Source: an uncultured Bacilli bacterium (GTDB lineage Bacteria; Bacillota_I; Bacilli_A; RF39; UBA660). From it: a DNA stretch of 64,000 nucleotides. The notes beneath the pieces are model-generated. The model was not told the DNA's origin. It saw only the letters and a list, made by a program, of their open reading frames with translations, and did not search any database. This document shows, piece by piece, positions 7,539-31,910 of this stretch (position 1 is the stretch's first letter; every line of letters begins with the position of its first letter). The stretch spans positions 449-64,448 of the forward strand of contig CALVKA010000002.1 in assembly GCA_944332475.1 (NCBI GenBank). The letters run 5' to 3'. Both the position numbers and the translations under genes were made by a program.

Positions 7539-7634
7539 AATCTTATCACTCCTAAAAGTGATTATATCATAAAAAGACCAACTCGCCTAGTAAAAGCACA
7601 CAAAAAAAGAGCAATAAAGCTCTTGATTTCTAAA

Positions 7635-10576: not shown

Positions 10577-10742
10577 ACTAACACCTTACTTCTCTATAAC
10601 TATATCATAGAATAACAATTTAGAAAATTACAGTTTCGTAATATTAATGTCAATATAGATATATAATATACATCAATATAATTATTTTAATCCCACACTT
10701 TTCATCAAACGAACAAGTTAGTAATACCAACTATATTTCTTC

Positions 10743-11495
10743 TTAACCTTCTAATTCATACATGATTACACTCAATACATTTAACGCTACAGTCTCAGTT
10801 CTTAGTATTCTTTTCCCAAGTGTAACAGTCACCACATTTTTATTTTCTTGTATCATTTCAACTTCCCGAGAAGATAATCCTCCTTCTGGCCCTATTATTA
10901 CTGCTATTTTTATTTCATTTTCCCCATATTTTTCTTTCATTACTTTTAGAACTTCACTTAATTTTATTTTTTCCTCTTTTTCATATGTTAATATTACCAC
11001 ATCATATTTAAAAAGCATTTTACATATATCTTTTAACGATTTTATACCTGCTACTTTAGGTATAAAATTTCTATCACATTGTTTTGCCGAAACTTCAGCA
11101 ATTTTTTGCCATTTCTCCTGCTTTTTGTATTTATCTTTTTCTTCATATTTTACATTACATCTTTCCATTTCTACCGGTTGTATTTTATAAGCACCTAACT
11201 CTACCGATTTTTGAATTACTAAATCCATTTTGTCTTTTTCAGGTAATCCTTGCATGATTGTTACCTTTATATTTGACTTAAAATCTTCTAACTCTCTTAC
11301 TATTTTACATTCAATCATTTCATTCTCTATTTTTTTAATATCACACAAATAGGTTTTTTCATTATTACTATTACAAACAATTATCTCATCTTCAACTTTT
11401 TGTTTTAAAACTTTTTTTATATAATCTACATCTGCTCCCCGAATTTTTACTATATTGTTTTCTATTTGTTCATCTCTTACAAAAAACTTCGACAT
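10743..11495 (-). CDS. rsmE: 16S rRNA (uracil1498-N3)-methyltransferase RsmE
   Basis: 250 aa. Family-typical N-terminus MSKFFV and C-terminal SPOUT signature IIGPEGGLS..E......V.LGKRILRTET. Confidence 0.8.
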   Translation of the reverse strand: MSKFFVRDEQIENNIVKIRGADVDYIKKVLKQKVEDEIIVCNSNNEKTYLCDIKKIENEMIECKIVRELEDFKSNIKVTIMQGLPEKDKMDLVIQKSVELGAYKIQPVEMERCNVKYEEKDKYKKQEKWQKIAEVSAKQCDRNFIPKVAGIKSLKDICKMLFKYDVVILTYEKEEKIKLSEVLKVMKEKYGENEIKIAVIIGPEGGLSSREVEMIQENKNVVTVTLGKRILRTETVALNVLSVIMYELEG

Positions 11496-11886
11496 ATCAT
11501 TCTCCTTTATACTAAAATATTATAACACATTATTTTTAAATACGAACTTTCAACTGTTATATTATGAACTTTAAAATTTTTTATAACACCCTTCACTTTC
11601 ATACATTACACCAGTTAAAAAATATTAACAATAACTATTTATGTTCTAACAACATTTCAAACATATAGTTTATTTACTTCTATATTATTTTAAATCAAAA
11701 AGATAAAAAAGTTCGAAGCCTCTTATATCCACATCCATAAACCAGAACAAAAAAAACTATGTATGTTAATAGAATAAATATAAATTCAGATTTTAATTTT
11801 CTTTTTTCTATAAAAATCAACAAAAAATTAATTTTAATATTCCTTTTTCTATATTTTTATGTTATACTTATTAAGTAACTTGACTT

Positions 11887-11962
11887 GGACTGTTAGCTCA
11901 GTTGGTAGAGCAACTGACTCTTAATCAGTGGGTCTAGGGTTCGAATCCCTAACAGTCCACCA
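11887..11962 (+). tRNA. tRNA-Lys(CUU): tRNA-Lys (anticodon CUU)
   Basis: Acceptor GGACTGT/ACAGTCC, anticodon stem ACTGA/TCAGT, loop CT-CTT-AA, encoded CCA. Confidence 0.85.
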
Positions 11963-11974
11963 TAAAGAAATATA

Positions 11975-12001
11975 ATCTAACTACATAGTTAGATTTTTTT
12001 A
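11975..12001 (+). terminator. rho-independent terminator after tRNA-Lys
   Basis: ATCTAACT-ACAT-AGTTAGAT followed by TTTTTTTAT. Confidence 0.65.
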
Positions 12002-12037
12002 TAAGAAACAAAAAAGTTCTATTGTCAAATAGAGCTT

Positions 12038-12640
12038 TTATTTTGCTAAAAAGACGCGAAATAACTTTTCGCTATATAAATCTTGATCTAGTTCCAACAT
12101 TCTCTCTGGATGCCATTGTACACCGATTTGAAAATAATGATCAGGGTTTTCCACGGCTTCAATCAAACCGTCATCAGACTGAGCCACAACATCAAAATTC
12201 CCACCATCTAAAACAGTAAAGTTATGGAAAGAATTCACTCGAACATAATCCTCCCCTAAAATTTGATATAACCTACTATCTTTTTTAATCGCAACAAAAT
12301 GATGATAACCATCATGTTCTAAATTATGTTCAACATCTCCAATTCCAACCAAATCTCTTCCCGTTTTCCATAAAACCATAGACTGCATTCCCTGACAAAT
12401 ACCAAGTAATCGTAACTGATGTTTAACAGCATAATCGATTAAGAAAAAATCCCAGGGACCTACAACATCTCCACCTGGTAATAAAATACCATCTACATCT
12501 TTTAACTTTTCTAAAAACACATCTTTTGAATCTTCATCACGAACAGTAACTACCTCACCACCAAAACGCGTAATCGCATTTTGATAAAAGTGATTCCTAA
12601 CTTCATCATTTTCAGGACGAAGCAATAATAAAACCTTCAT
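12038..12640 (-). CDS. class I glutamine amidotransferase / gamma-glutamyl hydrolase-like (peptidase C26 family)
   Basis: 200 aa. Nucleophile elbow LGICQGMQ and His-Glu pair in VQWHPER. Confidence 0.75.
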   Translation of the reverse strand: MKVLLLLRPENDEVRNHFYQNAITRFGGEVVTVRDEDSKDVFLEKLKDVDGILLPGGDVVGPWDFFLIDYAVKHQLRLLGICQGMQSMVLWKTGRDLVGIGDVEHNLEHDGYHHFVAIKKDSRLYQILGEDYVRVNSFHNFTVLDGGNFDVVAQSDDGLIEAVENPDHYFQIGVQWHPERMLELDQDLYSEKLFRVFLAK

Positions 12641-12654
12641 AATAGAAAAGAAGT

Positions 12655-13881
12655 TTATCTCAACTTCCCTTTCATACCTTTTAAACCATTTACTCCTCCA
12701 TGAGCAGCAAAACCTTGAAGAATATTAGTTTCAAAAGAATGAGTTTTACTAACTCGTTTTTTATAATCCTTAACACCAATATTAATCATCTCATCCAATA
12801 CAGAAGAAAAATCAATACCTTTTGCTTCCCATAAATAGAATGCTAAACTACCAGGAATAGAATTAATCTCATTAACATAAACTTTATTTTTTTCACTATC
12901 AATCAAAAAGTCAATTCTACTATTTCCAGAAGAACCAAGTGCCCTAAATGCTTTAACAGCAATATCTTCTACTTCTTTTCTAACTTTTGCAGGTAAATCA
13001 GCTGGTAACTTTCTATTAGCAGAAGCCATACCTTTAGAAGTTCCCTTCATAGGTACTTTTCCACCTTTTAATTTACCACCTTTGCCACCACCAATATATT
13101 TATCTGCATATGTTAAAAATTTATGTCCAGAAAGAACTTCTTCAATCTCACTAACTTTTTGACGTTCATAATTACCCATAACCGCAATATTAACTTCTTT
13201 TAAATTTTGAACAACTTCTTCCACTAAAATCTTCTTATCATATTGAATAGCATCATCAATCGCATCAATTAACTCCTCACGATTACTACAAACCGCAATA
13301 CCTACACTAGAACCAGTAGTAGCAGGTTTAACAATCACAGGATAATCTAGTTTTTCTACCTTTTCAACAACTGCATCGCTATCTTGTTTATAATCAATAT
13401 CATAAAACCAAACATAATCTGTCATAGGAAGTTTGGAATTCTTCCAAATATCTTTCATAAACACCTTATCCTGTCCTACAACAGATGCATATACATCACT
13501 ACCAACAAAAGGAATACCGATAGTTTGTAAATAGCCCTGTAAACCACCATCTTCTACATTTGTTCCATGAACAACTGGTAAAACAATATCCACTTCTGTA
13601 ACAATAGTTCTAGGGAACGTTTTCTTTTGTAATACAAATGCTCCCTTTCTATAATATAAAACAACATTCTTACCATACTTTTGAATTAAAGATAAATCTT
13701 GATACACTTCGATATCTTTTAACATTTCCCCAGTATACCATTCTCTATCCTTTGTAATATAAATTGGAATAATATCATATTTTTCTTGATCCAATTTATT
13801 CATTGCTTGCATAGCAGAAATAATACTAACTTCATGTTCAACAGTTTCTCCACCAAAAATAACACCAACTTTAATTTTCAT
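12655..13881 (-). CDS. ddl: D-alanine--D-alanine ligase family ATP-grasp enzyme, long form with loop insertion
   Basis: 408 aa. N-terminus KVGVIFGGETVEHEVSIIS, HGTNVEDGGLQGYL, ATP-grasp core and C-terminal NEINSIPG. About 20 extra residues (GGGKGGKLKGGKVPMKGTSKGMASANRK) lie between the DKY and LPA positions. Confidence 0.8.
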   Translation of the reverse strand: MKIKVGVIFGGETVEHEVSIISAMQAMNKLDQEKYDIIPIYITKDREWYTGEMLKDIEVYQDLSLIQKYGKNVVLYYRKGAFVLQKKTFPRTIVTEVDIVLPVVHGTNVEDGGLQGYLQTIGIPFVGSDVYASVVGQDKVFMKDIWKNSKLPMTDYVWFYDIDYKQDSDAVVEKVEKLDYPVIVKPATTGSSVGIAVCSNREELIDAIDDAIQYDKKILVEEVVQNLKEVNIAVMGNYERQKVSEIEEVLSGHKFLTYADKYIGGGKGGKLKGGKVPMKGTSKGMASANRKLPADLPAKVRKEVEDIAVKAFRALGSSGNSRIDFLIDSEKNKVYVNEINSIPGSLAFYLWEAKGIDFSSVLDEMINIGVKDYKKRVSKTHSFETNILQGFAAHGGVNGLKGMKGKLR

Positions 13882-13892
13882 ATTCTCAACTC

Positions 13893-15506
13893 CTATTCAT
13901 TATATGTATCTGGCAAATCATTTTCAAAAAGTGCATAAACTTCTCCATCAGCAGCCAACCTTCCAATAAAAGGATATGCATCTCGAACATCATTCAATAC
14001 AATAATTCGATTCTTTTCAAACCCTTGAGAAAGTAATCCTTCTCGAATCGGTTTTGTTTTATGTTTTCCTATTAAAATAGCATAATCGGCAACATGAGCA
14101 ATCTGCTCCCCAAACTTTTTATTATATTGATCTTCTTTTTCTCCAAGTTCAATCATTCCTGGAGTAACAACAACTTTAACACCTGGCATCATACCAAGAA
14201 CTTTACAAGCATTTTCTGCTCCAACTGGATTAGAATTATAAGCATCATCTATTTGATAAAAATTACCAAGCCTCTTTAACTCTAAACGATGTTCCACCGG
14301 TCTAACCCCTTTTACAGCCTGCTGTAAATCAGAAATAGGAATATCAAATTCATATCCAAAAGCAAGACCAGCTAAAATATTATAAACATTATGATCTCCT
14401 AATAATCTAGTTTCAAAATGATATTCCTTATCATCACCAGGAAACTTCACATCAAACTCCGTTCCCCTATTAGAACATCTAATATGCATCGCTCGTACAT
14501 CTACATCAGGATTATCAATTCCAATCCAAATAACTTTTACTTTATTTTTCAACTGATAAGAAACTTGCTTAGGATCATCTCCATTTAATACCGCAAATCC
14601 ATCACTAGGAAGAGATTCAATAAGTTCAAACTTTCCATCGATAATATTCTGTTCGCTTCCAAACGTCTCCAAATGAGCAGTACCAATACGAGTTAAAATT
14701 CCATATTTAGGTCGAACCAACTTACAAAGTCCACGAATTTCCCCTTTTACATAAGCTCCCATTTCAGCAATAAAGATATCATTAAACTTCGTTAAATCAT
14801 TATTAATAGTCATAATAAGTCCATTATAAGTATTCAAATTTCTAGGTGATGGTAAAGCATTATATTTAATATTTAAAATATCACTTAAAATATTTTTACT
14901 ACTTGTTTTACCATAACTACCAGTAATACCAATAATCTTTAAACTAGGCATACTTTTTAATTTACTTTGAGCTTTATGTTTATAAAAATGATAAACCCCT
15001 CTTTCAATTGGATAATTAATAATATTAGCAACAAAAACAATAAATGGATTCAACACTATCATAATAGTTAATATAGTAAACATTCCCCAGACAAATTGAG
15101 GATTACCATTTTGCCATAGTAATAGACAAGTAGGAATCAAATACAAAATAGAAATCGTAACAATTAACCGACTCACCCTCTTAGTAACCACAAGAGGCTT
15201 TTTATTTTGGTCTTCTGCCAAACGATTTCGCCAAGCATAAGTTAAGAATAAAAACAAACCACTTAATACTAAAACTAAAATAATAGCAAACTTTTCTATA
15301 TCATAAACAACTAATAACCCTATTAAAGAAAGAAAACAAGCTGCCAAATCCAAATCCCAAAACAATTTAGCATTACGAAATACCCACTTTAAATAGCGAT
15401 TATTTTCATTATATAAATTTTGTTGTAACATATGTAAATATCTTCTAGTTTTACATACCAAACAAACAAATATGCAAAGTAATAAAAACAAATAAACAAT
15501 TATCAT
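13893..15506 (-). CDS. MurF-like Mur ligase with N-terminal 5-helix membrane domain
   Basis: 537 aa. Residues 1 to about 165 are hydrophobic helices. Then P-loop GITGSYGKTSSK, and a MurF-type C-terminal domain with DDAYNSNP and PGMIELG. Confidence 0.75.
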   Translation of the reverse strand: MIIVYLFLLLCIFVCLVCKTRRYLHMLQQNLYNENNRYLKWVFRNAKLFWDLDLAACFLSLIGLLVVYDIEKFAIILVLVLSGLFLFLTYAWRNRLAEDQNKKPLVVTKRVSRLIVTISILYLIPTCLLLWQNGNPQFVWGMFTILTIMIVLNPFIVFVANIINYPIERGVYHFYKHKAQSKLKSMPSLKIIGITGSYGKTSSKNILSDILNIKYNALPSPRNLNTYNGLIMTINNDLTKFNDIFIAEMGAYVKGEIRGLCKLVRPKYGILTRIGTAHLETFGSEQNIIDGKFELIESLPSDGFAVLNGDDPKQVSYQLKNKVKVIWIGIDNPDVDVRAMHIRCSNRGTEFDVKFPGDDKEYHFETRLLGDHNVYNILAGLAFGYEFDIPISDLQQAVKGVRPVEHRLELKRLGNFYQIDDAYNSNPVGAENACKVLGMMPGVKVVVTPGMIELGEKEDQYNKKFGEQIAHVADYAILIGKHKTKPIREGLLSQGFEKNRIIVLNDVRDAYPFIGRLAADGEVYALFENDLPDTYNE

Positions 15507-15515
15507 AAAAACCTC

Positions 15516-16256
15516 CTAAATAAAATTGTTAAGAATAGAAACTACTTGAGGTAAATTTTCTATATATGCATAATGCGTACCAGGAAGAACAATCAATGCC
15601 GCATCATACATCATATCTTCTAACATTTTTGCTTCTTCTACTGGTGCTTCTTCGTCTTGATCTCCCCATATTAACAACGTGGGCTCTTCAATCTGTTTAG
15701 CAAAACTCGACAAATCTTCATTCACAACTTCGACCAAAGTTTGTCTCATAATAGGACTAGCCGCTTTATAATCACGAGAACCAATATATTTTTTCATTTC
15801 TTCACCAATTTTATCCAATCCAGGCAAAGTTTTTAATTTCTTCAAAATTCTTGTAGATAATGGCAACTTCTTCTGCAACCGAATACAAGGACTACCAAAC
15901 AAAACCAATTTTTCAATAGGATGGTTAGAAGAATATTTAATTGCAACTCTACCACCAAAAGAATGTCCCATAACAATAGGCTTTTTTATTTTTAATTGTT
16001 TAACCAAATCTTCAATTAATAATACGTAATCGGTAATCGTCCAAGGTTTTGACGGTTCTTCACTTTCTCCAAAACCAGGAAAATCCAAAATTGTAATACG
16101 AAAACGATCAGAAAAATAATCACCTAAAAACTTCATCATCTGAATATTTTGTCCCCATCCATGAAGAAGCAAAATATCTTTTCCCTCACCATATTGTATG
16201 TAATTAACAGAAACTCCTCTAATATTTGTTTTCATATTATCACCTACTAGAAACAT
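15516..16256 (-). CDS. alpha/beta-fold hydrolase
   Basis: 246 aa. HGWGQN oxyanion region, nucleophile elbow GHSFGG and a C-terminal His (GTHYAY). Confidence 0.75.
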   Translation of the reverse strand: MFLVGDNMKTNIRGVSVNYIQYGEGKDILLLHGWGQNIQMMKFLGDYFSDRFRITILDFPGFGESEEPSKPWTITDYVLLIEDLVKQLKIKKPIVMGHSFGGRVAIKYSSNHPIEKLVLFGSPCIRLQKKLPLSTRILKKLKTLPGLDKIGEEMKKYIGSRDYKAASPIMRQTLVEVVNEDLSSFAKQIEEPTLLIWGDQDEEAPVEEAKMLEDMMYDAALIVLPGTHYAYIENLPQVVSILNNFI

Positions 16257-22254: not shown

Positions 22255-22839
22255 ATGGAAATAAAAAATATAAAAGAAGAATTAAAAAAGAATCTTTCAC
22301 CATATCGATATGACCATAGTTTGCGAGTAGCCGACACAGCAAAAAAACTTGCCAAACACTACCACATCGATGAACCAAAAGCCTATATAACTGGATTATT
22401 ACATGATATCGCAAAAGAATTATCAGAAGAAGAAAATCAATACTGGATTAAAAAATATCACTTAAATAAAAATTTAAACGAAGAAAAAAATAGGAAAATA
22501 AAACACGCCGATATTGGAGCCGTCATCGCAAAAGAAAAATATCATTTAGATGAGAACTGTTGTAATGCCATAAAATATCACACCATCGGAAATAAAGATA
22601 TGGATACATTAGCAAAAATCATATATATTGCCGATAAAATTGGAAGAGAAAAAATACCAGAAGAATTAAAACCAGTAGAACAACTAGCCTATAAAAACAT
22701 AAATGAAGCATTATTATACTGTATAGAACAACAAGAAAAAAAGCTAAAAGAAAAAGGCATCAAAACACATAAAGATACTCAAGAACTATTAGAAAAACTA
22801 AAAAGAAAAAAGAACTCAATTAATAGAAAAGGGAATTAA
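22255..22839 (+). CDS. yqeK: HD-domain bis(5'-nucleosyl)-tetraphosphatase YqeK
   Basis: 194 aa. RYDHSLRV, LLHDIAKE, HADIGA, KYHT and IIYIADKI. Confidence 0.8.
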   Translation: MEIKNIKEELKKNLSPYRYDHSLRVADTAKKLAKHYHIDEPKAYITGLLHDIAKELSEEENQYWIKKYHLNKNLNEEKNRKIKHADIGAVIAKEKYHLDENCCNAIKYHTIGNKDMDTLAKIIYIADKIGREKIPEELKPVEQLAYKNINEALLYCIEQQEKKLKEKGIKTHKDTQELLEKLKRKKNSINRKGN

Positions 22840-22840
22840 T

Positions 22841-24466
22841 ATGAATAATGAATTAAGAAAAGACCTTACACCAAAAGAAACAATAAAAAAAATAAAAAAA
22901 ATACTTAAAGAAAATAAAATCAATATTAAAGAAAATAAAACTAAATGTCTATACAAAAATTTTTACTCTACAAGAATCGAAATAAAGGGATTTTATCATT
23001 TAGGAACAAATGGAAAAGGAATAACTAAAGATTTAGCACTAGCTTCAGCATATGCCGAACTCATGGAACGGTTACAATCAAAAATGTTAATTAATACTTA
23101 TTATTTAGGAAAAGTAAAAAACTTAATTAGTTATAATGATGAAACAATCAAAAAAAATTATATCGTTAAAAATTTAAAGATTTTAACCAGTTTTTTTGAA
23201 AGCGATGTTAATTTACAAGATTTTTTTAAAAAGAACAATAAATTTAGCATCGTTAGTAAATATAAAAATTTAATAACTGAAAAAGAAGAATATCTTCCAT
23301 CAAAACTAATAAATGCTACTTCCTTTTCAAATGGATTATGTGCAGGGAATAGCTTCTATGAAGCAATTAATCAAGGAATATGTGAAATTTTGGAAAGAAA
23401 TTCATATCAAGAAATATTAAACAAAGAAATAATCCTTGATAATATCATAATTGAAAAAGATTTACCTATCTACAATAAAATTAAAGCAATAAAAGAAAAT
23501 GGATTCAACATCCAAATAAAAGATTGTTCTTTAAAAAAATATCCTGTAGTTGGCGTATATATAACAAATAAAGACAAAACAAAATATATATTCACAATTG
23601 GCAGTGATCCTAACATAAACATTGCAGTTCAAAGATGCTTAACAGAAGCATTCCAAGGATTAAAAAACAAAAAAGATTTAATTTTTAAAATGAAGAAAAC
23701 AAATAATACCTTTTATGAATTAAACAACGAAGAAAGAAAAATGAACTGGTTTAAAAACTATTCATCAAATAATGGAATTCATCCCACAAAAATATTTCAA
23801 TCAAATAAATTTATCAATTATAAAAATCTAAAATATTTTAGTAATATAAAAACAAATAAAGAAATATTTAATTTTTTGCTTAATATTATCAAAAGCAATA
23901 ATCTTTCCATATATATAAAGGACTTTTCGTATTTAGGTTTTAACACTTATAAAATATATATTCCCATTCTATCAAATATAGATACCATTAATAATAATGA
24001 AAAAGACTTAATTAAAAATTATGATTTTTTAAAATCTATCTATTTTAATTTAAATAATTATAACAATAAAAAAGATTTAAAGAAAGCAAGTAACATAATT
24101 GAAAGAAGTCTAAAAAGCGACAAAAGTTTATTTATAAATTTAGGTAACTACTTTCACGCATCAAACTATATAAAAACAAATTATAATAATATAACTTTTG
24201 AATTTTTATATATATTGATAAAATGTAAAATTCATGAAAATATCAATTATAAACTAATAAAAAACAAAAATTTAATAAATTATATTAAATCAATTAATTC
24301 CAACAATAAATATGAATATATAATCAATGATTTAAATTTATTATTACCAACTTGTCCAAATTGTACTACATGTCCCATAAAAAAGAAATGTTGTTACAAG
24401 ACTTGGAAACATATTAACAATGTTTTAATTTTCAAAGAAGAAGAATATTTTCACAAAAATAAATAA
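22841..24466 (+). CDS. stand-alone YcaO-domain protein with Cys-rich C-terminal tail
   Basis: 541 aa. YcaO signatures GKGITKDLALASAYAELMERL and GLCAGNSFYEAINQGICEILERNS. The tail reads TCPNCTTCPIKKKCCYK. The ATG lies 1 nt after the yqeK stop. Confidence 0.75.
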   Translation: MNNELRKDLTPKETIKKIKKILKENKINIKENKTKCLYKNFYSTRIEIKGFYHLGTNGKGITKDLALASAYAELMERLQSKMLINTYYLGKVKNLISYNDETIKKNYIVKNLKILTSFFESDVNLQDFFKKNNKFSIVSKYKNLITEKEEYLPSKLINATSFSNGLCAGNSFYEAINQGICEILERNSYQEILNKEIILDNIIIEKDLPIYNKIKAIKENGFNIQIKDCSLKKYPVVGVYITNKDKTKYIFTIGSDPNINIAVQRCLTEAFQGLKNKKDLIFKMKKTNNTFYELNNEERKMNWFKNYSSNNGIHPTKIFQSNKFINYKNLKYFSNIKTNKEIFNFLLNIIKSNNLSIYIKDFSYLGFNTYKIYIPILSNIDTINNNEKDLIKNYDFLKSIYFNLNNYNNKKDLKKASNIIERSLKSDKSLFINLGNYFHASNYIKTNYNNITFEFLYILIKCKIHENINYKLIKNKNLINYIKSINSNNKYEYIINDLNLLLPTCPNCTTCPIKKKCCYKTWKHINNVLIFKEEEYFHKNK

Positions 24467-24601: not shown

Positions 24602-26362
24602 CTACCTTGTTTTCTTTTTTACTAATCCTGGCTTAACAATTCCCTGATTACCATCAACAGTCAAATTTTTTTCATCCCATATTTTCTTCATAGCATTTCC
24701 ACCAATACCAATAACACACGGAATTCCCAATTCCCTTGCTATAATGGCAGCATGACATAAAAAACCACCAACCGCAGTCACAATACCAGATGAATGTGAA
24801 AGAATATTCATCCACTCAGGATCCGTATACCAAGCCATCAAAATATCTCCATCATTCCAATCTGTTAATTGATCAATATATCGTGCATTAACAAATCTAG
24901 CAGGACCAGATACCACTCCTGGAGATGAAGGAATCCCCCTATATACACCTTCTTCAATATCGTGATTAAGAGATTGAGATATATCTAATTTTGAAGTAAC
25001 AGGGCGATATTGCAACATTACTAAATTATTATTTAATATCATCCACTCAAAATCAGCAACATCGTTATCATCCCGGGCAACTCTTTGCTGATATTCTAAC
25101 AATTCTTTACCAACATCTCCAACATTACAAACAAGTTTCGTTTCTGGCCCCTGGCCATTTTCCCAAATTTCCCTATTAGGAGAAACTTTACCAGAAACCA
25201 ACTTTTCCCCATTACCAGACACATACTCCATATAGCCACTATTATTATTTTTACCAATCCATACACCAGCATACTCGGGCTCAACAAAATCTTGGATAAT
25301 TACAGCCATATTAGGTTGACCCAAATTGTTAGTAGCAATATATCGCTGTAATCTAGAATTATTTTTTGAATTAATAACTTTATCAATATTATCACTTAAA
25401 GAATCGAAATCAACATCTAAATAAGAATCAAACATCCCTGCAAAAGAATTATTTTTACCATCTTCAATATCAGCAGAGCTTCTTACTGAATAATGTCCAT
25501 TTTTCATTAATTCAGAGTGCTCATTTACATCAAAATTAGAAGCAGTAACAGGAATGACAAAAGTTCTAGGGATTTCCACACCGCAAGCCCTTAATACAGT
25601 AAGTCCATAAGCTTTACCACCAACTAATTTTACAAGTTCATAATCCATACCACACAAATAACATTCAGCCAATTCATCGATAGAAATTAAATCTTTAGAA
25701 CACAACTCTGCAAATTTCTTATACATAAATGGACTTTCAAATTCTACATCAAGAGGTATCAAATATCTTTTTATATAATCATCATGCAATGCTTCCAAAC
25801 TAGGTTCTATAATTGTTTGATAATAGCCATGTTGCTTATCTTGCCATTCTTTTAAAACCCTATATTTTTGTAATAAATCATCATATAAATATGAATCATC
25901 TAAGCTTGCTTCTTTTAATACCTTTTCTCCATCTACAGATAAATTTCCTTTATCAAATCTAGATATTACTTCAAGATATCTATCACCATATTTATTTTTT
26001 ATAGCTTCAATTAAATCTGTTGAAAAGGAAGCTAATTCATCTAAAGATTCTAATATACCATAATATACTAAACCTCTCGTAAACGTACGGTAATAATCTT
26101 CTCCTTTTTCTAAATTATTAGCACTTTTAATATATAAGTTTGTTTTATTTCTAAGTTCTTGCATAATAGTATCGAGTTCTTTTGCAGACACAGTATCATT
26201 TCTAATAGAAATATACTGCTTTATTTCATCCATTAAATCATGATCCTTTGCACATTCTAAAAGAACAATTGTAGACCATGTGGATAAGTTCTTAGGAAAA
26301 AAATTATCACAATAATTAAACTTAAAATCCCTTAATTCTTCTAATGATACAGCATTACTCAT
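24602..26362 (-). CDS. PEP synthase/PPDK-like phosphotransferase (ATP-grasp nucleotide domain + swivelling phospho-His domain) with unknown N-terminal domain of about 240 aa
   Basis: 586 aa. GGKAYGLTVL, RSSADIEDG..NSFAGMFDSYL and a C-terminal PEP-utilizer mobile domain GGFLCHAAIIARELGIPCVIG. Confidence 0.75.
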   Translation of the reverse strand: MSNAVSLEELRDFKFNYCDNFFPKNLSTWSTIVLLECAKDHDLMDEIKQYISIRNDTVSAKELDTIMQELRNKTNLYIKSANNLEKGEDYYRTFTRGLVYYGILESLDELASFSTDLIEAIKNKYGDRYLEVISRFDKGNLSVDGEKVLKEASLDDSYLYDDLLQKYRVLKEWQDKQHGYYQTIIEPSLEALHDDYIKRYLIPLDVEFESPFMYKKFAELCSKDLISIDELAECYLCGMDYELVKLVGGKAYGLTVLRACGVEIPRTFVIPVTASNFDVNEHSELMKNGHYSVRSSADIEDGKNNSFAGMFDSYLDVDFDSLSDNIDKVINSKNNSRLQRYIATNNLGQPNMAVIIQDFVEPEYAGVWIGKNNNSGYMEYVSGNGEKLVSGKVSPNREIWENGQGPETKLVCNVGDVGKELLEYQQRVARDDNDVADFEWMILNNNLVMLQYRPVTSKLDISQSLNHDIEEGVYRGIPSSPGVVSGPARFVNARYIDQLTDWNDGDILMAWYTDPEWMNILSHSSGIVTAVGGFLCHAAIIARELGIPCVIGIGGNAMKKIWDEKNLTVDGNQGIVKPGLVKKKTR

Positions 26363-26364
26363 AT

Positions 26365-27912
26365 TTACACCTCTTTATAATTAATACTAAAATCCTTTCT
26401 TTTCAAATAAAAATAATCACATCTATTTAATAAGTCAGACTTAATTCTATTAACTTGACAAACTTTTTTATTTTGATTAAATTTTTTTATAATTGCTTCC
26501 ATTTTTTCTCTTTTATCACCATAAAATCTATACGTAATATTAATATTACTACAATCACAATCTATTTCGTCACAAATTTGAGAATTTCTAGATAGCACAA
26601 AAACATTTAAACCAAACAAATCAATGTATTTAAAATGACTTATAAAATATAAAGTCTTATATATATTTATATAATATTCATTAGGATAACCAATCATAAA
26701 AGTAGAAGCAACAACTATGCCACTAATATAGAAATTTTTTAACACACCTTTTATACTTTTTATATCAATTCCCTTATTCATATGTTTTAATATTCTTTTA
26801 TTATAACTCTCTATTCCAAAAGATACAAATGTACAACCACTTTTAGCTAATTGTTTAACATTATCTATATCTAAATATACCTCGCTAATTCTTGTTTCCA
26901 TCATCCAACATATATTTATTTTATTACTTATTAAATAATTAGCAAAATCCAAAATAATGTTAGGAGGTATACACTCATCAACAAACACAATTTTATCAAA
27001 TCTATTATTATTATACATTTCTTTTACCATTTTAAAAATTTTCTTCACATTCATTGGCATATAATTTCCATAATGATAATAATGAGAACAAAACTTACAT
27101 CTATGATAATAACATCCATAATTTAATAACAAAGGCATTATTCTATCTCTTGATAAATATTTTTCTAAAGAAACACTTGAATAATCTAAAAAATAATTTT
27201 CCACATTATCCAAAATATTTTTTTCTATAAACCGAGTTTTATTCCTTACAATAATATTTATTAAATCAGCATTCTTACCTAAGCAATATAAAATTGCATT
27301 TTGAAAAGTCTTAAGATGATTAAAAATTATAATTGCATTTACAAAATCGACCTTATTAATTAATTCATCACAATTCCGATTTATTTGAGTTAAATAATTT
27401 CCACCCCAAATAATTTTCACACTTTTATTAACACATTTTATTCTATTAGATAAAGCAATAGCCATAGGAACTTGAAAACCATATGACACATTAACAAAGA
27501 TAATATCTTTATCATGAAAATCATCCAAAGGAAATAATTCAATAAAGTTTTTTATTTTATTACTGACAATTATAAAATCATCTATATTTTTTATAGGATA
27601 TTGAAAATTAAAGCCACGATTATTCTGATAAATTATACCAAATTGTGACAAATATTTATTAACTGCTTCAATAAACTTATGATTTGCACTTAACAAGTCT
27701 TTGGAGCTATCTTTGATATCATATTTAATTTTTTCGATATCTTCACCAAATTTTTCAAAATTTGCATTAACAAGAAGATTGTTTAAAAAATAGTCAGTGT
27801 AATCATACATTTTGTAGTTAACTTTATTATTTTTTAAATATGTGCTATAAAGTATATTTTTTATATCTGGATAACTAAAAGTAATTCCTGGCAATGTATA
27901 TAAATAAATCAT
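26365..27912 (-). CDS. B12-binding-domain-like radical SAM protein (class B-like)
   Basis: 515 aa. Rossmann-like N-terminal half (IIFVNVSYGFQVPMAIALSNRIK...IIWGGNYLT). Cys triad GCYYHRCKFC has CX4CX2C spacing. FVSFGIESYNKRILKHMNKG matches the radical SAM core. Confidence 0.65.
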   Translation of the reverse strand: MIYLYTLPGITFSYPDIKNILYSTYLKNNKVNYKMYDYTDYFLNNLLVNANFEKFGEDIEKIKYDIKDSSKDLLSANHKFIEAVNKYLSQFGIIYQNNRGFNFQYPIKNIDDFIIVSNKIKNFIELFPLDDFHDKDIIFVNVSYGFQVPMAIALSNRIKCVNKSVKIIWGGNYLTQINRNCDELINKVDFVNAIIIFNHLKTFQNAILYCLGKNADLINIIVRNKTRFIEKNILDNVENYFLDYSSVSLEKYLSRDRIMPLLLNYGCYYHRCKFCSHYYHYGNYMPMNVKKIFKMVKEMYNNNRFDKIVFVDECIPPNIILDFANYLISNKINICWMMETRISEVYLDIDNVKQLAKSGCTFVSFGIESYNKRILKHMNKGIDIKSIKGVLKNFYISGIVVASTFMIGYPNEYYINIYKTLYFISHFKYIDLFGLNVFVLSRNSQICDEIDCDCSNINITYRFYGDKREKMEAIIKKFNQNKKVCQVNRIKSDLLNRCDYFYLKRKDFSINYKEV

Positions 27913-28898
27913 TCCAATTTACTAATTCTTTCTATTACTATCTTAGAAAATTTTTCATCACTAATCCAAACTTTTATGAACATAATATCATTCATTTTAA
28001 ATTTTTGAATACCAGGAAGGTTACTAAGTAAATCATAACATTTATTGAAGTCTTTTTCTTTTTTAAAAATTAAACTTATAAAATTACTTTCTGATTTAAT
28101 AATCATAAACTTTTTATTATGCTTTAATGTTTTATAAATTAAATCTCTATTACTTTTAATATATTCGATAGTATTATTAAAAATATTCAACATTTTTTTA
28201 TCATTTAACAATTTTATCATAAATCTAGCCGAATAGGTTGAAATCGAATGTGGAGCTATAAACGTATTTCGTAATCCGCTTATTTCTTTTTTAGTAATTA
28301 AATAGCCAATTCTAAAACCAGATGCAAAATAAGTTTTAGACATACTTCTAATTATCAATATTCTATCATTTTTTAAAGCCAAATCGACTAAACCACTTTT
28401 CTTATTTGAAAAGGCAATATAGGCTTCATCAATCAATAAAGAACCATTAAAGATTAATAAAATATCTTCTATTTGCTTATCAGTAAATCTTTCACCAGAA
28501 AACCATCTAGGAGAAGATATACATAACAAATCATCTTTTGTACTTTTAATTTTTCTTAATTGATTTATAAAATCATTAGCAGTTAAACAACTAATCATCT
28601 CAGAATTTACATTATTTAATCCTATATTTCGAGTATATAGACCAAACTCCGGCAAAGAAATAAATATTTTATTCCAAATTTTCAAATTTAAAATTACCGT
28701 AATTAGCTGACTACTACCCGCCCCTAAATAAATATATTCTTTATTAATATTTAACTTTTCTGCAATTGTTGTTAATAAAGGATCAGATAATTGATTATTC
28801 ATATCGTAATTAAAATTACCATCAACAAAATCCATCTGATACTTTTTTAACCATTTTTTTAAAACTTTATTATCTTTCCATATTGAAGCTGAAGCCAT
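27909..28898 (-). CDS. PLP-dependent fold-type I enzyme, HisC/CobD-like aminotransferase/decarboxylase family
   Basis: 329 aa. IDEAY and PLP-lysine motif SMSKTYFASGFRIGY are present. The usual NPxNPTG stretch reads SSPRWFSGE. Confidence 0.65.
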   Translation of the reverse strand: MASASIWKDNKVLKKWLKKYQMDFVDGNFNYDMNNQLSDPLLTTIAEKLNINKEYIYLGAGSSQLITVILNLKIWNKIFISLPEFGLYTRNIGLNNVNSEMISCLTANDFINQLRKIKSTKDDLLCISSPRWFSGERFTDKQIEDILLIFNGSLLIDEAYIAFSNKKSGLVDLALKNDRILIIRSMSKTYFASGFRIGYLITKKEISGLRNTFIAPHSISTYSARFMIKLLNDKKMLNIFNNTIEYIKSNRDLIYKTLKHNKKFMIIKSESNFISLIFKKEKDFNKCYDLLSNLPGIQKFKMNDIMFIKVWISDEKFSKIVIERISKLE

Positions 28899-28916: not shown

Positions 28917-29042
28917 TTAGCAAGTGTCAGAACAGTAATTACCGCCCAACTCTGCTAAAGTTGTATCATTATTTGTTGCAAATAAATTTATTACTTTTTT
29001 TCTTGAAAAAATTTTTTTCACAGCAGCAACAATTTTTTTCAC
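28917..29042 (-). CDS. candidate RiPP precursor peptide (41 aa)
   Basis: GTG at 29042 follows AAGGAGGTGAT plus a 7-nt spacer. Product: (M)KKIVAAVKKIFSRKKVINLFATNNDTTLAELGGNYCSDTC. It lies 31 nt after the rSAM stop and 18 nt before the PLP gene. The longer 74-aa track ORF overlaps the rSAM 3' end and has no SD. Confidence 0.6.
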   Translation of the reverse strand: MKKIVAAVKKIFSRKKVINLFATNNDTTLAELGGNYCSDTC

Positions 29043-29073
29043 TCTATCACCTCCTTTATTATAAGTTATAACC

Positions 29074-30261
29074 CTACAAATGATTTTCGACTCTTTGCTT
29101 TGCCGCAATACATACTCTGCTATTATTATTTTCTTTAGCAATTAATTTAAGAAACTCATATCGTTTTTTACTTAACCAAATAGTATTAAAATCTTGTTTT
29201 AACACATTACCCAAACAATAACTTTTTATAAATGGGCAACAATATACATCCCCATTATAATCAATAGTACATTTACCTATACCCGCCGAACACTTCCAAT
29301 GTTCAGTTTGCAAAAATTCTTTTTCACCATTATCCAATAAATACACCTTGCTATTACAATTCTCATCTGGCATATCTGCGTATAAAAGTCTTTGACCTTT
29401 ATCTATTTTTTTTACTTCCTTTTTTAAATTATCCATAAAATAATCATGCTGTTTTTGTGTAAGTTTCATACTAGATGTAGCATTTCCAGAATCGATTAAA
29501 TTAGATATTTGTATTTTATATACACCTATCCTACATAATAAGCCATATAATTGAGGAAGTTCCTGATAATTAAGAACTGAAAGCACCGAATTAGTAGTAA
29601 CTCTATATCCCTTAGAAACTATTAATTTTATATTTTGAATCGTTTTTTTAAAACTACCATTTCCTCTTATGATATCGTGATCTTTTTCCATACCATCAAT
29701 ACTTATAAAGAAATCTAATTTTTCGACTGGCAAGTATCCTAAAATCTTAACTAGTTTTTTTTCAAAAGTGTCCAATAATAAAGCATTAGTGAAAATATTA
29801 ACCTTAATATCATTTTGTATTAACAAGGCAACTATCTTAGGAAGCGAAGATACTAGTAATGCTTCTCCCCCAGTAACAGTAACTTCCATAACGTTACTAT
29901 TTATTAAACTACTGGTAATTTTTTTTAATTCTTTTTCACTAAGCTCTTTATTATCTAGTCTTCCTAAATAACAATGCTTACATTTCAAATTACATTTATT
30001 TGTAATTTTCCACTGTACTTTTAAAGGAAAATCCAAATTTACATTATTATCATAATATTCTATTTCTTCGATTTCTTTTTTTAATTTTTTTAGTTCTCTA
30101 TTTAAGTTAAATCTGCTCATATGTAGTTCTTTAGCAGCTTTTGAAAAATCAGTAGTAGTATAATATGAATTAATTATATCAAAAGTATACTCATTAACTA
30201 CATAATATTTATTATTAATATTAATAATAAAGCGATCATCATCAATTTTCCTTTTTTTCAT
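29074..30261 (-). CDS. radical SAM peptide-modifying enzyme with truncated (Twitch-like) auxiliary-cluster domain and possible N-terminal RRE
   Basis: 395 aa. CNLKCKHCY (CX3CX2C). C-terminal CSAGIGKCTIDYNGDVYCCPF, but no CX2CX5CX3C block. An N-terminal segment of about 70 aa precedes the rSAM core. Confidence 0.75.
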   Translation of the reverse strand: MKKRKIDDDRFIININNKYYVVNEYTFDIINSYYTTTDFSKAAKELHMSRFNLNRELKKLKKEIEEIEYYDNNVNLDFPLKVQWKITNKCNLKCKHCYLGRLDNKELSEKELKKITSSLINSNVMEVTVTGGEALLVSSLPKIVALLIQNDIKVNIFTNALLLDTFEKKLVKILGYLPVEKLDFFISIDGMEKDHDIIRGNGSFKKTIQNIKLIVSKGYRVTTNSVLSVLNYQELPQLYGLLCRIGVYKIQISNLIDSGNATSSMKLTQKQHDYFMDNLKKEVKKIDKGQRLLYADMPDENCNSKVYLLDNGEKEFLQTEHWKCSAGIGKCTIDYNGDVYCCPFIKSYCLGNVLKQDFNTIWLSKKRYEFLKLIAKENNNSRVCIAAKQRVENHL

Positions 30262-31519
30262 ACACAGCTTCTCCTATAATTCCATCTATATACAATGTAC
30301 AAAGAAAATCCCTAATATTTTCAATTCTATCAAATTTTGCTTCCAACTCGCCGCCAGTTTTATTTCCATCACAATCTAACAAAATTTTATAACCATTTTT
30401 ATCCACCTTCCTAAGTGGAACTTTAATAATCAAAAAATCCTGCTTTTCTCTACGAATTTTCCCACATTTTAAAATCAGCTTTTTATGTTTTATATTCTGC
30501 CAAGTTTTTTTTAATATACTAATTAGCAAAGCATCACACGAATTATCAAAAAACAAAAAATTCCCTTCAGCATGACACCCACCCTTACAACGTTCAAAAT
30601 CTTTACATAATCTACAAAGATTAGGTAACCAGTCAAATTTCTTATATGTTTTTAAATATTGAGAACTGGAAATCTGACTAAAATTTTTTTTAAAAGCATT
30701 ACCTAATACATAATTTGATGAAGGGCATATTTTGACATCTCCATTAGGTTCAATACTAAAAAGTGATATACCAGCCCCACAACTATGGCATAAGTATCTA
30801 TATCTAGCATTACATGAACATGCAGAAATACAATTACTTATTGAAATATATTGATATTTTTTGCTTAATTCATCAATACTTTTTAAATATAAATCAGGAT
30901 CTATAATCTGATCATTTGATGCAGCTCCTAAATAATTTAATCTACCAAAAGATAACTTAATATTTCTTTTCTTTGCAAACTTTACAATAAAAGCTAAATT
31001 ATCAAAATCAATATTATCTTTAGTTAAAGTACAATTAATATTAAGATTAATTTGAGGATATTTTAGTATTATTTTATCAATATTATCTTTTAACACTTTA
31101 AACACACCAGGCACGCCACAAAGTTTATCATGTATTTCAGGATTACCATGTAACGATATACCAACCGTATTAACATAATTCAAAATTGCTTCGTTTTTAA
31201 ATAAATCTATACCGTTTGTTATTAAGGTTTGTTCAAAACCTAGAGAATATCCATATTTCAACAATTCCAAAATGTATGGATAAGTCAAAGGCTCTCCACC
31301 TGTATAATTAATAGAAATAACTCCCATTTTTTTAAACTCACGTAATAATTTTTTTGCTTCTTCAAAATCCATATTAATTCTTTTAGAGTCTGATTGTGAA
31401 CAAAACGAACAATTTAAATTACAACAACCAGTAACTTTAAAATAAACTATAATAGGCGTTTCAAGGGTATCTAAATTATATTTAACATTAAGATTAACAG
31501 ATTTCAAAAAAGTTTTCAT
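30242..31519 (-). CDS. radical SAM/SPASM peptide-modifying enzyme with C-terminal PqqD-like extension
   Basis: CNLNCSFC (CX3CX2C) near the N-terminus. Full SPASM block CHSCGAGISLFSIEPNGDVKICP...CRLCKDFERCKGGC. A tail of about 95 aa (ILLDCDGNKTGGELEAKF...FLCTLYIDGII) follows. Start placed at ATG 31519 rather than the track's TTG 31543. Confidence 0.8.
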   Translation of the reverse strand: MKTFLKSVNLNVKYNLDTLETPIIVYFKVTGCCNLNCSFCSQSDSKRINMDFEEAKKLLREFKKMGVISINYTGGEPLTYPYILELLKYGYSLGFEQTLITNGIDLFKNEAILNYVNTVGISLHGNPEIHDKLCGVPGVFKVLKDNIDKIILKYPQINLNINCTLTKDNIDFDNLAFIVKFAKKRNIKLSFGRLNYLGAASNDQIIDPDLYLKSIDELSKKYQYISISNCISACSCNARYRYLCHSCGAGISLFSIEPNGDVKICPSSNYVLGNAFKKNFSQISSSQYLKTYKKFDWLPNLCRLCKDFERCKGGCHAEGNFLFFDNSCDALLISILKKTWQNIKHKKLILKCGKIRREKQDFLIIKVPLRKVDKNGYKILLDCDGNKTGGELEAKFDRIENIRDFLCTLYIDGIIGEAVYEKKEN

Positions 31520-31523
31520 TCTT

Positions 31524-31631
31524 CTATTTTTCCTTTTTATCAATTAAAATAATTCTACATTGTGTCATATCAGGACGTAACTCTTTAATATAAAGTTTAT
31601 TTTTTGTCTTTCGAAAAAAAATTTTAAACAT
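31524..31631 (-). CDS. candidate 35-aa small ORF translationally coupled to the SPASM gene
   Basis: GAGGTGG plus a 5-nt spacer, then ATG at 31631. Product: MFKIFFRKTKNKLYIKELRPDMTQCRIILIDKKEK. The TAG stop lies 4 nt before the rSAM ATG. Below the track's size cut-off. Confidence 0.35.
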   Translation of the reverse strand: MFKIFFRKTKNKLYIKELRPDMTQCRIILIDKKEK

Positions 31632-31758: not shown

Positions 31759-31833
31759 TGGAGCGGATGAGGGAAATCGAATCCCCGTCACAGCCTTGGC
31801 AAGGCCGTATTCTAACCACTAAACTACATCCGC
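31759..31833 (-). tRNA. tRNA-Gly(GCC): tRNA-Gly (anticodon GCC)
   Basis: Acceptor GCGGATG/CATCCGC, anticodon loop TT-GCC-AA, encoded CCA. Confidence 0.85.
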
Positions 31834-31836
31834 AAA

Positions 31837-31910
31837 TGGAGGGGCCTACCGGATTTGAACCGGTGATCAGGGTGTTGCAGACCCACGCCTTACCACTTGG
31901 CTAAAGCCCC
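31837..31910 (-). tRNA. tRNA-Cys(GCA): tRNA-Cys (anticodon GCA)
   Basis: Acceptor GGGGCTT.../...AGGCCCC, anticodon loop CT-GCA-AC, encoded CCA. Confidence 0.8.

Follow-up and report, generated by a model that had tools for sequence, protein, structure and literature searches.

A stretch of 64,000 nucleotides from an uncultured Bacilli bacterium (GTDB lineage RF39; UBA660), taken from contig CALVKA010000002.1 of assembly GCA_944332475.1 (positions 449 to 64,448) and referred to here in its entirety as the window, was analysed around a small gene encoding peptide B, which lies in a cassette with two radical S-adenosylmethionine (rSAM) enzymes, rSAM1 and rSAM2, and a second small gene, peptide A. 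The peptide B gene (28917..29042, minus strand) was delimited from sequence and conservation and encodes 41 aa from a GTG start at 29042 to a TAA stop at 28919-28917. Its product is VKKIVAAVKKIFSRKKVINLFATNNDTTLAELGGNYCSDTC, read from the GTG as (V/M)KKIVAAVKKIFSRKKVINLFATNNDTTLAELGGNYCSDTC (translation of window 29042..28917, minus strand), and the C-terminal block GGNYCSDTC, defined from alignments and homologue sequences, is encoded by 28920..28946 on the same strand. The gene begins 31 nt downstream of rSAM2, which ends at 29074, and occupies the 175-nt gap between rSAM2 and the start at 28898 of the gene for a pyridoxal phosphate (PLP) enzyme. A Shine-Dalgarno (SD) sequence, AAGGAGGTGAT, was located from sequence and duplex energy at 29046..29056 (minus strand), and its GGAGG core ends 7 nt ahead of the GTG. 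The anti-SD duplex energy of -15.9 kcal/mol was the strongest in the operon (PLP enzyme -13.0, peptide A -10.1 and a pyruvate phosphate dikinase-like (PPDK-like) gene -9.6), and the same AAAGGAGGTGA occurs in relatives. The coordinates, strand, GTG start and translation of the open reading frame (ORF) given by an initial annotation, made from the sequence alone, were reproduced exactly, and so were its claims that the operon's strongest SD lies 7 nt ahead of the start codon and that the gene is located in the 175-nt space between the second rSAM gene and the PLP enzyme gene. Public gene callers have independently called the same 41-aa product in public assemblies.

Related loci were fetched from genomes and metagenomes with rSAM2 homologues, at least 600 stretches were matched, so that closer genomes may exist beyond those listed, and statements on loci in this text are made among the matches listed. 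All relatives were metagenome-assembled except Anaerocolumna sp. MB42-C2, and the taxon labels, assigned by the depositors, read "Bacilli bacterium", but two bins carry the names Roseburia and Muribaculaceae and may have been mis-binned. Peptide B was present beside the rSAM pair in all 17 listed loci whose contig covers the module; the chance expectation for an ORF ending in CxDxC and a stop is 0.2 per shuffled 64-kb window over six frames. A profile of seven peptide B sequences recovered 49 clusters at 90% identity in a search of 5.8 billion proteins, a full HMMER scan of 1.84 billion representatives returned 26 at 50% identity, and identical copies of peptide B occurred on many gut-metagenome contigs. 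Between subfamily-1 genes the proportions of synonymous (pS) and non-synonymous (pN) differences were 0.79 and 0.14 for the last 12 codons and 0.58 and 0.39 for the leader. The frame is therefore under purifying selection, which is strongest at the C-terminus. In subfamily 2 nearly the entire peptide was conserved.

The location of peptide B was variable (after rSAM2, after the PPDK-like gene or after the B12-type rSAM gene), yet always within the cassette. Clusters with 60-70% identical enzymes had a 41-aa ORF in the same place as the window, for example ...ATLAELGGNYCSDSC and ...ATLSELGGNYCSDCC. Clusters with approximately 40% identical enzymes were ordered PLP enzyme, B12-type rSAM, peptide A, rSAM1, rSAM2 and PPDK-like gene, with nothing at the site after rSAM2 and a homologous 40-aa ORF located after the PPDK-like gene, for example MIKFFKKLFKKDSNVLINLNNVNKTLSMSMAGNGNCSDCC. 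The divergent clusters L006, L093 (Anaerocolumna sp. MB42-C2) and L098 had leaders of a third type joined to the same tail (...ASEAAGYCSDQC and ...EMAAHCGDQC), and their peptides terminate in AAHCGDQC-stop and AGYCSDQC-stop. The initial annotation had proposed a conserved precursor-like peptide inside an rSAM cluster and had named absence of the small ORF from syntenic clusters as grounds for abandoning the idea; the ORF was present in every complete syntenic locus examined, and the 17 loci, the 49 clusters and the pS and pN values all support the proposal.

These data leave practically no chance that peptide B is a spurious ORF lying in AT-rich spacer DNA, or a regulatory leader that has no function as a peptide. 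Such an origin would fit the shortness of the ORF, its GTG start and the outcome of the family scans, where peptides A and B had no Pfam (2025) or NCBIfam (June 2026) match at E <= 10, but the amino acids are conserved despite saturated synonymous change, the peptide occurs at differing sites of rearranged cassettes, and its family comprises 26-49 clusters. The chance-ORF explanation was already ruled out by the conservation data. The peptide B gene is thus a real one, selected for its coding sequence and tied to the rSAM maturase pair, and it belongs to an uncharacterised, putative peptide-modification system rather than being a chance ORF. Text searches of a literature library with the peptide motifs, CxDxC and the enzyme combination found nothing relevant.

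Four residues, G(-9), C(-5), D(-3) and C(-1), were invariant in all peptide B sequences and held across the three leader subfamilies, and C(-1) was always the last residue, leaving its C-terminus free. The positions between them varied, with Y, N, D or H at -6, S, G, T, Q or E at -4, and T, S, C, A, L, V, N, F or Q at -2. The leader was basic, with motifs conserved within subfamilies. A leader followed by a Cys-rich core had been anticipated by the initial annotation, and in outline this holds, as a basic leader and a conserved C-terminal block of Cys and Asp are present. Its finer divisions did not survive the comparison. The proposed Gly-Gly junction appears as GG, SG, CG or A-G-N-G among relatives, no Peptidase_C39 occurred in any gene table of the examined loci, and the seven-residue core NYCSDTC shrinks to the invariant positions listed above. 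Double-glycine leader peptides have an invariant GG and a C39 peptidase-ABC exporter, a combination that peptide B lacks, and double-glycine processing was rejected because the GG varies and the C39 peptidase is absent. Conserved phosphorylation at Ser(-4), Thr(-2) or Tyr(-6) was likewise rejected, and the suggestion that Tyr, Ser and Thr act as acceptors or phosphorylation sites was not upheld, since these residues vary among relatives. The Cys, Asp and Cys residues remain, on alignment evidence, as the putative functional triad of peptide B.

Upstream of peptide B are the two rSAM genes of the module. rSAM1 (30242..31519, minus strand; 425 aa from an ATG also used by public gene callers) contains Radical_SAM and SPASM domains. 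It has the CX3CX2C motif and eight invariant post-core Cys, including CX2CX5CX3C, which constitute a full SPASM domain. Its C-terminal extension of approximately 95 aa has a pattern that by eye may be PqqD-like; in Pfam one member of this domain matched PqqD at 0.051 and one matched PaaA-like_N at 0.008. An AlphaFold2 model of rSAM1 built from the single sequence, with no alignment, had a mean predicted local distance difference test (pLDDT) value of 37.5 and was unusable. rSAM2 (29074..30261, minus strand; 395 aa) comprises a domain of the type of the recognition element (RRE) of peptides synthesised ribosomally and modified post-translationally (RiPPs), a radical SAM core and a twitch-like or partial SPASM domain. 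Its AlphaFold2 model, based on 56 homologues, had a pLDDT of 86.7 and placed residues 3-66 in a b-b-b-a-a-a domain followed by the rSAM barrel, a topology that the model predicts to be that of an RRE; a sequence-only search for this domain gave weak winged helix-turn-helix matches only. Only four post-core Cys were invariant, so rSAM2 probably holds one auxiliary cluster, like twitch domains and SkfB.

The best Foldseek matches of the rSAM2 model, over approximately 400 columns, were SkfB, SuiB and CteB, solved RiPP maturases with an N-terminal RRE-type peptide-recognition domain, and the nearest PDB sequence was SkfB (2.8e-18). On the model, rSAM2 has the RRE-rSAM-twitch/SPASM architecture of RiPP maturases. 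SkfB, which makes one Cys thioether, was the best sequence and structure match of rSAM2, and both proteins combine an RRE at the N-terminus with an rSAM core and a twitch-like domain for one auxiliary cluster. The two differ in that identity is only 21% and rSAM2 scores 71.7 with TIGR04403 against a cut-off of 300, which places it outside that family; moreover, the precursor SkfA is unrelated to peptide B, and skf-type protease, immunity and export genes are absent here. The sactipeptide models AlbA (61.3 against 850) and StsB (67.5 against 625) were similarly far from their cut-offs. In NCBIfam both rSAM enzymes matched MftC best, at 106.8 and 90.9 bits against a cut-off of 265. A co-variation test for disproportionate divergence of either peptide-binding domain across the leader subfamilies of peptide B gave domain/core identity ratios of 0.82 within and 0.80 between subfamilies for rSAM1, and of 0.71 and 0.66 for rSAM2.

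We consider it likely that peptide B is a RiPP-type precursor in a two-peptide, two-rSAM module and that its CxDxC tail is cross-linked, probably by Cys-to-Asp thioethers. Peptide B is a small ORF located with a maturase that is modelled to carry an RRE, and it combines conserved candidate modification-site residues with a recognisable leader, as is typical of RiPP precursors. In the proposed sequence of events, peptide B would be translated efficiently from its own strong SD, and its basic, beta-strand-prone leader (KK[IL]F...[IV][ND]L) would be held by the RRE-type domain of one of the rSAM enzymes. The reaction site would be the invariant C-terminal Cys-x-Asp-x-Cys-COOH, where the most likely chemistry, by analogy with freyrasin/PapB, NxxcA/NxxcB and QhpD, is an rSAM-catalysed sulfur-to-carbon cross-link from the Cys thiols to the beta-carbon of the invariant Asp, which may combine with chemistry on the C-terminal Cys. 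Further tailoring of the product would fall to the PPDK-like phosphotransferase and YcaO, and to the HisC-like PLP enzyme and a class-B-like rSAM, in cassettes that have them, and peptide A would serve as a second substrate or as a small partner of the rSAM pair.

Cys-to-Asp and Cys-to-Asn C-beta thioethers are described rSAM products (PMC8326336). Six Cys-Asp links occur in freyrasin and a Cys-Asn link in NxxcA, and QhpD makes Cys-Asp (S-C-beta) and Cys-Glu thioethers (PMC8326336). Given the freyrasin and QhpD precedents, the idea in the initial annotation that Asp accepts a thioether is a reasonable guess by analogy. The ranthipeptides (freyrasin/PapB, NxxcA/NxxcB and thermocellin/CteB of the SCIFF family) resemble the present system in having a small Cys-containing precursor beside an RRE-carrying rSAM-SPASM maturase, CteB being among the top structural matches of rSAM2. 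Their Cys sulfur is joined to the C-beta of an Asp or Asn a few residues away (PMC8326336), and the residue pattern of peptide B is compatible with such a link. They differ from the cassette in the window, which has two different rSAM enzymes, a second peptide, a PPDK-like kinase, YcaO, a PLP enzyme and a site at the extreme C-terminus. SCIFF peptides have six Cys in approximately 45 residues while peptide B has two and carries no SCIFF signature, and with the PapB model (NF047865) rSAM1 scored 53.5 bits against a cut-off of 340, the model being outside the top 25 matches of rSAM2. QhpC/QhpD is a comparable case of rSAM-SPASM thioethers in a small Cys- and Asp-rich polypeptide (PMC8326336), although QhpC is the gamma subunit of quinohemoprotein amine dehydrogenase with cysteine tryptophylquinone, the QhpD model reached 57 against 453, and Qhp genes are absent here. 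The system appears to work as rSAM-modified RiPPs such as ranthipeptides or sactipeptides do, and could prove to be a new RiPP class.

Several observations weigh against a cross-linked precursor. Neither rSAM enzyme reached the curated cut-off of any known maturase family in NCBIfam, a profile search of the rSAM1 C-terminal domain against PDB gave nothing significant, and hhalign of this domain with the rSAM2 RRE gave a probability of 1%. No peptidase (C39 or any leader protease) or transporter, as would be looked for with a RiPP precursor, was found in the window-type, type II or type III cassettes. In the one natural sub-module observed, the RRE-bearing rSAM2 is paired with peptide A, not with peptide B. 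In loci L085 and L086 (approximately 9217-9342) ACG stands in place of the GTG or ATG with which relatives begin the peptide B gene, and the GGAGGTGAT ahead of it is intact; the gene was skipped by gene callers there, and it could be initiated non-canonically or be undergoing decay in that lineage. We know of no precedent among thioether RiPPs for an E. coli-type YcaO together with a PPDK-like kinase, and the true chemistry may differ. The modification of peptide B, the enzyme that acts, the thioether chemistry and the fate of the product are inferred from genes, sequence and a structural model. On the other side, the Anaerocolumna-type clusters, and these only, carry an S8 peptidase and two ABC transporters, which fits a processed and exported peptide.

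The invariant position of C(-1) at the end of the peptide also suits a different chemistry, in which the C-terminal Cys is the reaction centre. One rSAM enzyme would carry out an MftC-like oxidative decarboxylation of Cys(-1), and the resulting enethiol would either be joined to the beta-carbon of Asp(-3), as by SycC in AviCamCys formation, or be hydrolysed to an aldehyde and transaminated by the HisC-like PLP enzyme in the manner of daptides, with methylation and phosphorylation to follow. MftC is the best NCBIfam match of both rSAM enzymes, although at 91-107 bits it is far under the cut-off of 265, and a SAM methyltransferase lies beside the PLP gene in subfamily-2 cassettes. Precedents exist in SycC, an rSAM-SPASM enzyme that joins an enethiol derived from the C-terminal Cys to the C-beta of an upstream Asn (PMC10989515, section 14), and in daptides, where a PLP aminotransferase acts on the remodelled peptide C-terminus (PMC10028931). 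The AviCamCys system SycA/SycC/SycD shares with peptide B a very short precursor (22 aa), which ends in N-x-x-C-COOH (PMC10989515, section 14) where peptide B ends in D-x-C-COOH. It differs in requiring a LanD-like flavoprotein, and neither this nor any LanD-type decarboxylase is present here; the acceptor would be Asp, the spacing is i/i+2 instead of i/i+3, and peptide B has a second invariant Cys. Daptides (MpaA-D, M) similarly have an invariant C-terminal residue that is remodelled in an RRE-dependent manner with a PLP aminotransferase and a methyltransferase (PMC10028931). Their C-terminal residue is Thr, however, and they use an NAD(P)-dependent decarboxylase instead of an rSAM enzyme and a class III aminotransferase (PMC10028931), while peptide B ends in Cys and the PLP enzyme is of class I/II and HisC-like, which sets it apart from the daptides. 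Several cassettes also keep CxDxC in the absence of the PLP enzyme. On balance a reaction centred on the C-terminal Cys is unlikely.

The absence of a peptidase and transporter from the window-type, type II and type III cassettes bears on a further possibility, namely that peptide B, with peptide A, is the scaffold of an intracellular peptide-derived cofactor or small molecule that is not secreted, like pyrroloquinoline quinone (PQQ) or mycofactocin. It would account for the retention, by gut Bacilli with small genomes, of a cassette that has no protease or exporter, and it is in keeping with the identical peptides on many gut-metagenome contigs, the conservation of nearly the whole peptide in subfamily 2, and generic best matches to the cofactor maturases MftC and PqqE. 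Mycofactocin (MftA/MftC) and PQQ (PqqA/PqqE) are alike in that an rSAM-SPASM enzyme acts near the C-terminus of a short peptide with no dedicated exporter, and MftC and PqqE were the best, though weak, family matches of both rSAM enzymes, far under the cut-offs. Peptide B differs in ending in CSDTC, with no Val-Tyr or Glu...Tyr motif, and the cassette has no MftB/D/E/F or PqqB/C/D genes, so that it does not group with mycofactocin. The S8 peptidase and ABC transporters of the Anaerocolumna-type clusters speak against a retained product, locus L096 lies among conjugation and mobile-element genes that are more typical of accessory traits, and no dependent oxidoreductase is linked. A cofactor scaffold appears quite unlikely, and a modified RiPP precursor is retained as the preferred interpretation.

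The gene for peptide A (31524..31631, minus strand) encodes 35 aa, MFKIFFRKTKNKLYIKELRPDMTQCRIILIDKKEK, and its stop lies 4 nt before the rSAM1 ATG. It was absent from the initial annotation and is a conserved small ORF directly upstream of rSAM1 and the rSAM pair in every full-module locus listed, with a length of 33-60 aa across loci. Its motif is KELRPDMTQCRI, with the family form [IV]K[EK][ILV][KR]P[ED][MIV]T[QE]CR[ILV][IV], and the family, of 103 clusters, has E, P, T, Q, C and R as its invariant residues. Because its stop touches the start of the following rSAM gene or overlaps with it, peptide A is taken to be translationally coupled to that gene. In some loci peptide A is in frame, with no intervening stop, with the preceding gene, which is the class-B-like (B12) rSAM in L001 (approximately 6500-6735) and L087 (3086-4858) and a SAM methyltransferase gene in L006 (5821-6735); these could be natural fusions, or the stop may simply have been lost ahead of an internal start.

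Loci L094 and L095 hold a variant (9392-15667) in which peptide A precedes a single rSAM gene, a full-length orthologue of rSAM2 (41% identity) and not of rSAM1, and no rSAM1, CxDxC peptide, YcaO or PPDK was found there. This variant also contains a 714-aa protein with no Pfam match, an NAD_binding_8/amine-oxidase-like protein and a GT2 glycosyltransferase, and its peptide (P0265) occurred on more than 200 contigs. The view of the initial annotation that two Cys in peptide B match two rSAM enzymes is weakened by the presence of a second peptide in the module and by the existence of peptide A with an rSAM2 orthologue in the absence of rSAM1 and peptide B; the two enzymes may instead reflect two peptides. 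Taken further, peptide A could be the true substrate of the rSAM pair, with peptide B an accessory such as a metal- or sulfur-carrying CxDxC tail or a regulator. The larger family of peptide A (103 against 49 clusters), its occurrence with the rSAM2 orthologue where peptide B is missing and its constant position directly upstream of the rSAM genes could be read in this manner. The strong SD, mobile position and leader/core-like conservation of peptide B are typical of precursors, however, the tight coupling of peptide A to the following rSAM gene is more typical of a protein partner, and peptide B was found in every two-rSAM module. We regard this exchange of roles as highly improbable and retain peptide B as the candidate substrate.

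Downstream of peptide B on the minus strand are three further genes of the cassette. The first encodes a PLP enzyme of aminotransferase class I/II (27909..28898; Aminotran_1_2, HisC/CobD-like, 329 aa) with the SMSK lysine motif kept. It is followed by a class-B-like radical SAM protein (26365..27912) whose weak best matches were the PhpK family and a RiPP C-methyltransferase family; Pfam detected no B12-binding domain in it, and at residues 265-275 approximately it has CX4CX2C (GCYYHRCKFC) instead of the canonical CX3CX2C, as do its orthologues. The third gene (24602..26362, 586 aa) encodes a putative phosphotransferase with a PPDK_N (ATP-grasp) domain and a swivelling-His domain of phosphoenolpyruvate (PEP) utilizers. 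The first approximately 280 residues had no match, the swivel-His motif is kept (GGFLCHAAIIARE), and the likeness of the protein to PEP synthase and rifampin phosphotransferase is confined to the ATP-grasp and His domains. An E. coli-type YcaO (22841..24466) is convergent on the plus strand, with E. coli YcaO (4q84) as its nearest solved structure, and is preceded in the window at a 1-nt gap by a YqeK-type HD gene (22255-22839). YcaO differs from the SagD-type cyclodehydratase YcaO proteins of azol(in)e RiPPs or thiazole/oxazole-modified microcins (TOMMs), as TIGR03604 scored 58.4 against 219 and no E1-like/Ocin-ThiF partner gene was seen. No cassette enzyme reached an NCBIfam equivalog cut-off, with the exception of a generic YcaO kinase-domain model.

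Across the full-module loci the constant unit was peptide A, rSAM1 (full SPASM), rSAM2 (RRE, one auxiliary cluster) and peptide B, and the sub-unit of peptide A and rSAM2 also exists alone. The PPDK-like gene and YcaO always occurred together and kept their adjacency through at least four arrangements (among them convergent, upstream co-directional and downstream). The possibility that YcaO is unrelated housekeeping synteny was judged unlikely, since it stays adjacent through several rearrangements and its co-occurrence with the PPDK-like gene is strict. The PLP enzyme and the class-B-like rSAM come as a pair, both being absent from L096 and L101, and the PLP enzyme is also absent from L093, L098 and L006. 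In the Anaerocolumna-type clusters the PPDK-like gene, YcaO, PLP enzyme and class-B-like rSAM are all lacking, and extra rSAM enzymes, methyltransferases, an acyl carrier protein, the S8 peptidase and the two ABC transporters are present instead. In L093 (Anaerocolumna sp. MB42-C2, CP133190.1 4636088-4656264), L098 and L006 the module lies inside a larger cluster that includes two B12-binding rSAM enzymes and two methyltransferases, and L093 is the only version in a cultured and completely sequenced organism. Locus L096 (1-9900) has the order peptide A, rSAM1, rSAM2, peptide B, PPDK and YcaO, without the PLP enzyme and B12-type rSAM, beside TrbL, a sortase, a DNA methylase and an rve integrase; this setting, perhaps a mobile element, suggests that the module may have been transferred horizontally.

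As the PPDK-like/YcaO and PLP/class-B-like rSAM pairs are optional and the module is constant, the rSAM pair would perform the class-defining step on the tail and the remaining enzymes would act in tailoring. To our knowledge two different rSAM-SPASM enzymes, a PPDK-like kinase, an E. coli-type YcaO, a HisC-like PLP enzyme and a class-B-like rSAM do not occur together in any described RiPP class. A more far-reaching proposal, which we put forward only tentatively and hold to be improbable as a whole, is that A-rSAM1-rSAM2-B is an undescribed two-peptide rSAM module in which each rSAM enzyme has its own peptide, or the two peptides are joined together. It would be extended in small-genome gut Bacilli by the PPDK-like protein, YcaO, the HisC-like PLP enzyme and the class-B-like rSAM to yield a heavily remodelled product without dedicated export, either a new RiPP class or a peptide-derived cofactor, and would provide the first peptide substrate context for an E. 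coli-type YcaO.

If peptide B is modified as proposed, it would represent an uncharacterised rSAM-modified peptide family that is common in metagenome-assembled genomes of human and animal gut Bacilli, with a very small reaction site of only Cys-x-Asp-x-Cys-COOH. The cassette would also offer a testable substrate context for the non-TOMM YcaO family, the biochemical role of which is still unclear. Anaerocolumna sp. MB42-C2, with a related cluster in a cultured organism with a complete genome, is a tractable starting point. For genome mining, both small genes are a case in which curated family libraries miss genes or leave them unnamed.

Other features of the window included a tRNA-Cys(GCA) and a tRNA-Gly(GCC) at 31759-31910 (minus strand), directly upstream of peptide A and between two terminator-like hairpins. 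The tRNA pair has its own strong promoter-like site (31952-31924), and the promoter-like site, tRNA-Cys, tRNA-Gly and a terminator-like hairpin are all upstream of peptide A. An Rfam scan of 20-36 kb found the two tRNAs only and no riboswitch. The position of the tRNAs is probably coincidental, because the pair was not called upstream of the cassette in other loci covering that side. In addition, an open frame of more than 2,500 codons (1-7586, minus strand) runs off the window start.

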